Below are positions 2 to 826 of a DNA stretch of 826 bases, in pieces (positions within the stretch are counted from its first letter, which is position 1; each line of letters starts with the position of its first letter). The stretch is taken from NCBI RefSeq assembly GCF_003334815.1, contig NZ_QOWO01000117.1; one strand, 5' to 3'. The DNA comes from Escherichia coli. Lineage in GTDB: Bacteria > Pseudomonadota > Gammaproteobacteria > Enterobacterales > Enterobacteriaceae. Both the position numbers and the translations under genes were made by a program. The notes below the pieces were generated by a model that was given only the letters and a program-made list of their open reading frames with translations, had not been told where the DNA came from and did not search any database.

Positions 2-160
2 CAGAAGATAATTCAGGTTTGCACGGTTATCGATGACTGCGCTGGTTGTGATTTTTATCGTACCGGCAAATCTCGGATCACCGCTCACAACAATAGAATG
101 ATTTGTTGATGAACGCCCCGGGAATTTTTCAGGGGAAACTATCGTTTTGCCGTCAGGTGT
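2..160 (-). other. Beta-rich, Gly/Ser/Thr/Ile/Val-rich segment following the helix (window residues ~223-275); putative start of a receptor-binding domain
   Basis: Seen in sequence: abrupt change of composition after ...QQLTQQKN to TPDGKTIVSPEKFPGRSSTNHSIVVSGDPRFAGTIKITTSAVIDNRANLNYLL, with Pro/Gly breaks and alternating hydrophobic/polar residues typical of beta strands. The functional assignment (receptor binding, Cir in the case of colicin Ia/Ib) is inference from the family match. Confidence 0.45.
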
Positions 161-826
161 GTTTTTCTGTTGCGTCAGCTGTTGTTCAGCTCTGGTTAAT
201 GCATTACGGGCCGTGTTAAGCGATTCCGTCACCGAACTGAGCTTATTCCGGGCCTCTGAAATGGCCCTGTCATTCCGTGTCTGCTGCCCGAGCAGACGGG
301 CCTGTTGTGCATCAAGAACGGCAAGGGCTGCCCCGCCATTTTTTTCCAGCTCTGACAACCGGGTGTCCAGAATACCTTTTCTGCGCTCGTATTCAGCAAG
401 CATATCAGCGGCCTTCTTGTCTGCGTTCTGCGCATCCTTCTGCCGTTTTTCAGCCTGTTCGATTAACGACCTGGCCTCCCGGGGAGATATACGAAGAGAA
501 TCAGCATCAGCAAACAGCATCCGGCTCTCTGTATGCAGCCGGAGGGCGTCATATCCGGCGATTTCAGTACGGAATCCGTATTCTCTCAGCTCTGCCTGCA
601 GGAGTCTGAACTCCTGTCGTGTAATATCAGCGGCATCTGCGTTTCCGGCACGGAGTGTTTTCAGTGTGTTTTCATCTTTTTCCCTTGCAGCAATCGCCGC
701 AGAGAGGCGTTTTCCGGCTTCAGTACGCTTATTCTCATTCTCTTTCTGCTGCGCGCTGAGCGTGTTTTTGTACGCTGTGATTTCCTTGTCCCTTTTTTCG
801 ATATCACTTCGGGTTGGGGAATCATC
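2..826 (-). CDS. cia: Internal fragment (5' and 3' partial) of a colicin Ia/Ib-type pore-forming bacteriocin gene, covering the distal translocation-domain helix through the start of the receptor-binding region; about 275 of an expected ~626 codons
   Basis: Seen in sequence: reverse-complement frame starting at nt 826 is open for all 275 codons with no stop; the protein is compositionally coherent (A/E/K/R/Q/L-rich, zero Cys, zero Trp) and helix-like, which is not expected of a random open frame. Recognition: the translated peptide matches my recollection of colicin Ia essentially residue for residue (from about ...WVDDSPTRSDIEKRD... to ...AVIDNRANLNYLL...). Colicin Ib has a near-identical N-terminal portion, so Ia versus Ib cannot be decided from this window; the symbol cia is given with that caveat (cib equally possible). 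Not verified by any database search. Confidence 0.72.
161..799 (-). other. Predicted long alpha-helical / coiled-coil segment of the encoded protein (window residues ~10-222)
   Basis: Seen in sequence: continuous stretch dominated by A, E, K, R, Q, L with very few Pro/Gly and recurring hydrophobic positions (e.g. LSAAIAAREKDENTLKTLRAG, LIEQAEKRQKDAQNADKKAADMLAEYERRKGILDTRLSELEK, LNTARNALTRAEQQLTQQ). Consistent with the very long helices known for pore-forming colicins, but would also fit other coiled-coil proteins. Boundaries are approximate and based on composition only. Confidence 0.6.

Follow-up and report, generated by a model that had tools for sequence, protein, structure and literature searches.

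The question raised by a contig of 826 nt from an Escherichia coli assembly (NZ_QOWO01000117.1) is which gene it was cut from, what would lie on either side of it, and why it ends where it does. The contig was analyzed over its full length, and this whole stretch of 826 nt is called the window. Since the window makes up all of its source and no exact copy of it occurs in any of the collections searched, predictions about its flanks could be checked in relatives only, and the statements on flanks given below rest on these relatives. The gene and the type of locus are already known. Colicins Ia and Ib are plasmid-borne, pore-forming group B bacteriocins that depend on Cir and TonB for uptake, and these colicins, their immunity genes, their control by LexA and Fur and their missing lysis gene are textbook matter.

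Identity of the Window

On the minus strand, the frame that starts at base 826 runs through the window to base 2 as 275 codons without a stop, and codon 337 begins with base 1, an A. The remaining two minus-strand frames are rich in stops. The plus strand contains short ORFs only, the longest being one of 110 aa at 277–609, and these plus-strand ORFs were discounted as artefacts that run antisense to the colicin reading frame.

Over its full length, the 275-aa product can be aligned with residues 40–314 of the colicin Ia chain 1CII_A (E = 6.8e-167), with 274 of the 275 residues being identical and a His in the window instead of an Asp in 1CII as the sole change. It is identical as well, across 56 residues, to residues 9–64 of 2HDI_B, the Cir-binding fragment. 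In addition, the receptor-binding model PF11504 (Colicin_Ia) of Pfam is matched with its positions 1–55 of 72 at residues 221–275 of the window product (E = 4.3e-37), the final 17 positions of the model falling beyond the window. In plasmid record NZ_LT985320 (locus L001), the colicin CDS spans 3818–5698 (1881 nt) and the window match spans 4001–4826. As this match begins 183 nt past the ATG, the window corresponds to codons 62–336 plus one base. Judged from its sequence, the window is an internal fragment of the colicin Ia/Ib gene (cia/cib) on the minus strand (2..826), comprising codons 62–336 of 626 and open at both ends, as the first-pass annotation had already recognized.

Within this fragment, residues 62–281 (167..826, minus strand) would, according to the 1CII alignment and the known domain boundaries of the 1CII structure, comprise what remains of the translocation domain as well as the long helix region of the coiled coil. 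Residues 282–336 (2..166, minus strand) make up the first 55 residues of the R domain, by which the Cir receptor is bound, as located by PF11504 and 2HDI_B. The residue that deviates from 1CII is residue 304 (window 97–99, minus strand), which is His in the window, in all loci that were read and in 2HDI. The Asp304 of the 1CII chain probably reflects either a variant or a sequencing difference of older date in the crystallized construct.

Relatives in Sequence Collections

In a collection of 72,556 plasmids, the window matches 1007 records at 90–99.9% identity; a copy at 100% is absent from this collection, the best match having one mismatch, as well as from 5,426 complete E. coli genomes. An exact-product look-up found no gene on record with exactly the product of the window. 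From the relatives, 23 loci were read, i.e., 20 database records and three metagenome contigs, here numbered with an L. The colicin Ia operon (that of the 1CII/2HDI protein; NZ_LT985320, NZ_CP014622), found on plasmids of the IncI-gamma/K1 and IncK2/Z types, encodes a protein identical to the window product over residues 62–336, and its DNA has one (L001) or three (L007) mismatches to the window, the exact window haplotype being present in no record. The colicin Ib operon (pColIb-P9 type, e.g., pH22, NZ_CP120564) likewise encodes an identical protein, with two DNA mismatches in the intact Ib locus L002 and one in the truncated Ib locus L022. If an operon is counted as full when at least 80% of it is covered, the 1007 plasmid records contain about 913 full operons, 338 of them Ia and 575 Ib.

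The sole difference between the window and its nearest records, L001 and L022, is a synonymous marker, C465 (window 362, minus strand), which makes the codon for Thr216 ACC instead of ACG. Further toward the 3′ end of the fragment lie three linked synonymous alleles in the SNP table, G585, G594, and A669, at window positions 242, 233, and 158 (158..242, minus strand). The exact 59-nt pattern around C465 is absent from species-representative genomes and from viral contigs (IMG/VR). It is present in three human-gut metagenome contigs, each of which has at least three other differences from the window.

A wider query, L001:3700-6060, which covers the Ia operon region, matches at least some of this region in 1958 plasmid records, compared to 1007 for the window, and consequently around 950 plasmids, 52 of them from Klebsiella, keep only fragments of the locus or of its surroundings. 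In plasmids of the IncI/IncK type, the colicin and immunity genes are part of a conserved module that further contains a ProQ/FinO-family gene, yagA, a DUF6404 gene, and two hypothetical genes; these neighbors lie at 2193–3539 and 6184–7395 of L001 and at equivalent positions in other loci. IncF plasmids have other upstream neighbors, namely the yacAB toxin–antitoxin genes with an exonuclease, or lolC with a LysR-family regulator. A search against NCBIfam assigned the colicins, the immunity proteins, the DUF6404 neighbor, and YagA to no family and returned only sub-threshold SMC coiled-coil noise.

Organization of the Locus in Relatives

The first-pass annotation had reconstructed the unseen locus from general knowledge of pore-forming colicins: an ORF of around 626 codons, with the first ~60 codons and the TonB box upstream of the window, ~290 more codons with the pore-forming domain downstream of it, and an oppositely oriented immunity gene of ~110 codons beyond the toxin gene. 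The relatives agree closely with these figures. In 18 intact relatives, the ORF is exactly 626 codons long, made up of 61 codons before the window, the window itself, and 290 codons after it. Of 19 tabulated loci, 18 retain the 5′ end, and in these the first 61 residues do not vary and contain EIMAV at residues 23–27, which we take to be the TonB box of colicin Ia/Ib. In the full-length protein of L007, Pfam places PF11504 at residues 282–353 and the pore-forming domain PF01024 at residues 440–622. The convergent immunity ORF lies 17–21 nt beyond the colicin stop on the opposite strand; its product is hydrophobic and counts 111 aa in Ia and 115 aa in Ib, and both versions match PF03526, the family of colicin E1-type immunity proteins. 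Between the convergent genes lies a hairpin with T-runs on both strands (L001 5713–5737), and a promoter-like site is present upstream of the immunity gene.

A lysis gene had been predicted to be missing, and this prediction was upheld in the relatives: a tblastn search with three lysis proteins gave no match in 22 loci. Of five loci scanned for lipoprotein signals, four (L001, L002, L007, and L018) were negative, and L016 gave a single weak pattern match of 36 aa. This is in agreement with the literature, in which group B colicins are described as being without lysis genes and the release of ColIb as dependent on prophage lysis (PMC7374059).

Promoter and Regulation

Upstream of the ATG, the non-disrupted loci share the −35 and −10 hexamers TTGACA-17-TAAATT, downstream of which lie CTGTATATGTATCCATATGCGTAAGCAG and a ribosome-binding site, GGAG. 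The relatives were scored against the 20-nt LexA consensus and against the Fur consensus. One LexA box was found, which agrees with the consensus at 15 of 20 positions and has the core CTG-N10-CAT (L001 3747–3766). An overlapping second LexA candidate, CCATATGCGTAAGCAG, has two mismatches in the core and is a degenerate half-site. A Fur box, with 17 of 19 positions in agreement with the consensus, is located just upstream of the −35 element (L001 3689–3707). As read from these scores, the promoter of the colicin Ia/Ib family is one with a single predicted LexA box and a predicted Fur box. Similarly, Pcib has been described to contain one LexA site and a Fur site, with the double repression being lifted upon damage to DNA and shortage of iron (PMC4675545). 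The first-pass annotation had expected a promoter with tandem LexA boxes of the CTG-N10-CAG type. The LexA box as such was found, the tandem arrangement was not, and the Fur box had been missed. Taken as a whole, the earlier reconstruction was therefore right in its numbers (61, 290, and 626 codons, and an immunity gene of ~110 codons) and wrong in its tandem LexA promoter.

The order of elements that the relatives suggest for the locus from which the window derives would thus start with a Fur box, TTGACA-17-TAAATT, a LexA box, the GGAG ribosome-binding site, and the ATG. These would be followed by the 61 N-terminal codons with EIMAV, the window, and 290 codons that end in the PF01024 pore domain. 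A terminator hairpin working in both directions would then separate the toxin gene from a convergent PF03526-family immunity gene with its own promoter, and a lysis gene would be missing. The group A colicins of the E1 type (E1, K) have PF01024, an immunity protein of the PF03526 family, and SOS control in common with Ia and Ib. Group A operons, which reside on small plasmids, include a lysis gene and, as a rule, a pair of overlapping LexA boxes (PMC4675545). Unlike these, the colicin Ia and Ib loci have no lysis gene, combine one LexA box with a Fur box, and reside on large conjugative plasmids, as 957 of the 1007 matching plasmid records are predicted to be conjugative.

It is very improbable that the window stems from a chimeric colicin, from a colicin with a novel immunity gene, or from a colicin-like gene in a phage or another non-plasmid context. 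Nothing was found that speaks for such an origin other than that 10 of the 759 matches in complete genomes are chromosomal; the other 749 lie on plasmids. Against it, the window shares 99.9% identity with standard loci of both types, every one of the 20 loci in which the cassette type is readable has either an Ia or an Ib cassette, and neither the 50,697 phage records nor IMG/VR contained a match. The first-pass annotation had named a phage structural gene cluster as a finding that would speak against the proposed operon; a phage context is rejected on the basis of the zero matches in the phage collection.

Colicin Ia or Colicin Ib

The promoter, the N-terminus, and the gene order of the Ib operon are as in Ia, while the C-terminal ~190 codons of Ib and its gene for the 115-aa immunity protein are only ~50–60% identical to the Ia DNA. 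When Ia (L001) and Ib (L018) are compared along the operon, they are 97–100% identical from the promoter to about ATG+1230 and 93% in the bin that follows. The identity then amounts to 40–60% from about ATG+1320 on and across the immunity gene, after which it rises to 70% and then to 100% from about ATG+2220. The divergence thus sets in near ATG+1290 to 1320 (codon ~430–440), at least 280 nt past the end of the window. The earlier statement that Ia and Ib differ mainly in the C-terminal domain and the immunity gene, and that the flank decides the type, is borne out by this onset. The type can therefore not be read from the window alone, since the cassette specific to Ia or Ib, which in Ia extends from codon ~430 across the whole immunity gene, begins about 280 nt further on. 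Typing at the protein level was discarded, as the Ia (L001) and Ib (L002) proteins are identical across the window. Typing by the nearest neighbor is unsafe, with L001 (Ia) and L022 (Ib) each at one mismatch and L002 (Ib) at two.

Among the individual DNA alleles, there is evidence in both directions. C465 is carried by 46 of the 1007 plasmid records, in 42 of which the span from the window to the far end of the Ia immunity gene is covered at 100%. Two further carriers, L020, which has an 11-nt deletion, and L021, which is intact, proved to be Ia on inspection. All 44 typed carriers of C465 are therefore Ia and none is Ib; the other two carriers sit at the origin of the record. The metagenome contigs with C465 that are designated L004 and L005 are Ia as well, and Ib records have a G at gene position 465. 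The 3′ half of the window (G585/G594/A669) belongs to the haplogroup of L001, L002, L006, and L022, unlike that of the other C465 carriers. The exact 143-nt 3′ stretch occurs in 36 plasmid records, which include Ia (L001), intact Ib (L002, pH22), and truncated Ib (L006, L022). All four combinations of the alleles at sites 465 and 585 exist, from which it follows that recombination or recurrent mutation has occurred.

If the window derives from a single locus, Ia is the likelier type. The opposite assumption, i.e., a single Ib locus that is intact like pH22 or truncated like L006 and L022 and that acquired C465 by recurrent mutation or by a short conversion tract, is improbable. It would fit the single mismatch to the truncated Ib locus L022 and the two mismatches to the intact Ib locus L002, the position of the 3′ half, which lies nearest to the type cassette, in a 36-record haplogroup that holds many Ib loci, and the excess of Ib over Ia operons among the plasmids (575 vs. 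338). It is contradicted by the absence of Ib from the 44 typed C465 carriers.

Contig Ends and Allelic Composition

The bases directly outside the window are both polymorphic among 19 loci. Upstream, Val61 is encoded by GTT or GTC. Downstream, the base that adjoins base 1 of the window (1..1, minus strand), at ATG+1009, makes codon 337 either ACC (Thr) or AGC (Ser). The 1290 conserved nt of the gene contain 50 variable sites, and an 826-nt fragment can be placed in them in 462 ways, of which only the actual one is flanked by two variable bases, this being a post hoc test on a sample of 15 loci. Furthermore, the window is an exact mosaic of two known alleles, as its base at offset 464 is that of L007, a common Ia allele, its bases at offsets 584, 593, and 668 are those of L022, the truncated Ib gene, and no private base is left. 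Outside the window, L007 and L022 differ at −1, beyond which the transposon junction of L022 lies at −10; downstream, they differ at 826, 868, 951, and 996 and onward into the diverged cassette.

From the exact mosaic, together with the position of both ends at allele forks, we infer a collapsed segment with two sets of flanks. The 826-nt contig is, with moderate probability, an assembly segment common to two co-occurring colicin-I loci. The first of these would be an L007-type Ia operon in intact form. The second would be an Ib locus of the L022/L006 type, the 5′ end of which is cut off by a TnAs1-family transposon. Two small variant bubbles within the segment would have been merged by the assembler into a mosaic consensus, and the flanks would consist of one Ia set and one Ib set. 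The first-pass annotation had assumed that the contig can be extended into one flank on each side; this assumption needs correction, as there may be two sets of flanks.

The shared k-mers of both alleles are consistent with such a collapse. With k of at least 99, the only runs near the window that are shared by L007 and L022 are 0–463, 465–583, and 669–825, and the run 465–583 disappears at k = 127. Given these runs, short-read assembly of both loci would result in a segment of exactly 826 nt, provided that the two internal bubbles were merged. The truncated Ib remnant of L006 and L022 carries the 3′ haplotype of the window, L022 equals the whole window except for C465, and the remnant differs from the Ia alleles at exactly offset −1. 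A difficulty for the collapsed segment is that the assembler must have merged the two internal bubbles and yet have broken the contig at the outer two.

A natural example of such a combination of loci is E. coli ECOR 3, which contains an intact Ia plasmid (L001) as well as a truncated Ib plasmid (L022) and in which the first upstream difference between the copies is again located at −1. Positions 4001–4951 of L001 and 2501–3451 of L022 (NZ_LT985321) are identical across 951 nt, however, which speaks against the collapsed segment in so far as the stretch shared in ECOR 3 would run to offset 950 and not to 825. Among the complete E. coli genomes of the collection, none has an L007-type Ia and an L022-type Ib locus on separate replicons. 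The intersection of the searches for both alleles consists of pVTB933v-1 only, in which there is a single locus.

Instead of being a product of assembly, the window haplotype may be real and may have arisen when an Ia operon and an Ib locus that resided together underwent gene conversion, a possibility that is rather unlikely. If true, the homogenization of N-terminal regions, or the shuffling of immunity cassettes, between colicin-I plasmids would have been caught in the act. L022 departs from the common truncated type, L006, at 86, 101, 868, and 881. At these four sites it matches the Ia copy with which it co-resides, which suggests gene conversion between the copies of ECOR 3; the 951 nt over which they are identical are a further hint at it.

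It is likewise rather unlikely that the window comes from a single canonical Ia operon. Its haplotype would then be real, as a recombinant of L007-like and L001-like Ia alleles or as an intermediate between them, and the contig would end for an unrelated reason, e.g., low coverage. The type of the C465 carriers (44 of 44 Ia) points to a single Ia operon, as does the nearest record, L001, which at one mismatch is an intact Ia operon. Moreover, the three metagenome contigs with C465 have a coverage of 2.9–3.4x according to their names, which shows that fragmented assemblies of this gene are common, and the four combinations of sites 465 and 585 show that recombination or recurrent mutation occurs naturally. 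A single Ia operon leaves unexplained, however, why both ends stop one base short of a polymorphic site, as in 1 of 462 placements, and why the window is an exact mosaic of two parents. More generally, short contigs of the colicin Ia/Ib gene may be segments collapsed from several alleles, so that the type deduced from them can be ambiguous.

Disrupted Relatives and Their Annotation

A number of the relatives have been disrupted by mobile elements. In L006 and L022, a TnAs1-family transposon has removed codons 1 to ~58 together with the promoter, the junction being 9 nt upstream of the start of the window; this type of junction is present in 28 complete genomes. The remnant is found on large plasmids, many of them from O111 strains and cattle. 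As it lacks the TonB box, it cannot give rise to an importable colicin, while its Ib immunity gene is intact. In L023 (NZ_CP178657.1, pVTB933v-1), which has an intact 626-codon Ia gene, the same TnAs1-family end precedes the ATG by 41 nt. Here, the Fur box, the −35 and −10 elements, and the LexA box are all replaced by the transposon end (L023 3813–3990), and expression of the colicin would depend on read-through or on another promoter. In L011, a TEM-1 transposon cuts off the 3′ end after about codon 427. Insertions of IS26, IS1, and IS903 are found among the matching loci as well. Besides by insertions, the gene can be affected by small deletions. One example is L020 (NZ_CP043828.1), an Ia locus with C465, in which an 11-nt frameshift deletion lies inside the window region; its colicin copy is predicted to be inactivated, and the annotation of its immunity gene is shortened. 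As roughly 1 in 10 of the plasmid-borne copies is disrupted, the presence of a fragment does not equal the presence of a working toxin.

Neither the gene region in the window nor the RefSeq product names separate Ia from Ib. In RefSeq, the Ia and Ib toxins are both called 'colicin Ia central receptor-binding domain-containing protein', and 'colicin E1 family microcin immunity protein' is the name of the Ib immunity proteins as well as of the Ia variant in L009. In L006 and L022, RefSeq annotates a 424-aa product that starts at the internal Met203, and at 2455–2964 a 169-aa antisense 'hypothetical protein' (WP_099356063.1), which maps to the plus strand of the window from ~363 to beyond 826. 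Both products look like artefacts of pseudogene annotation.
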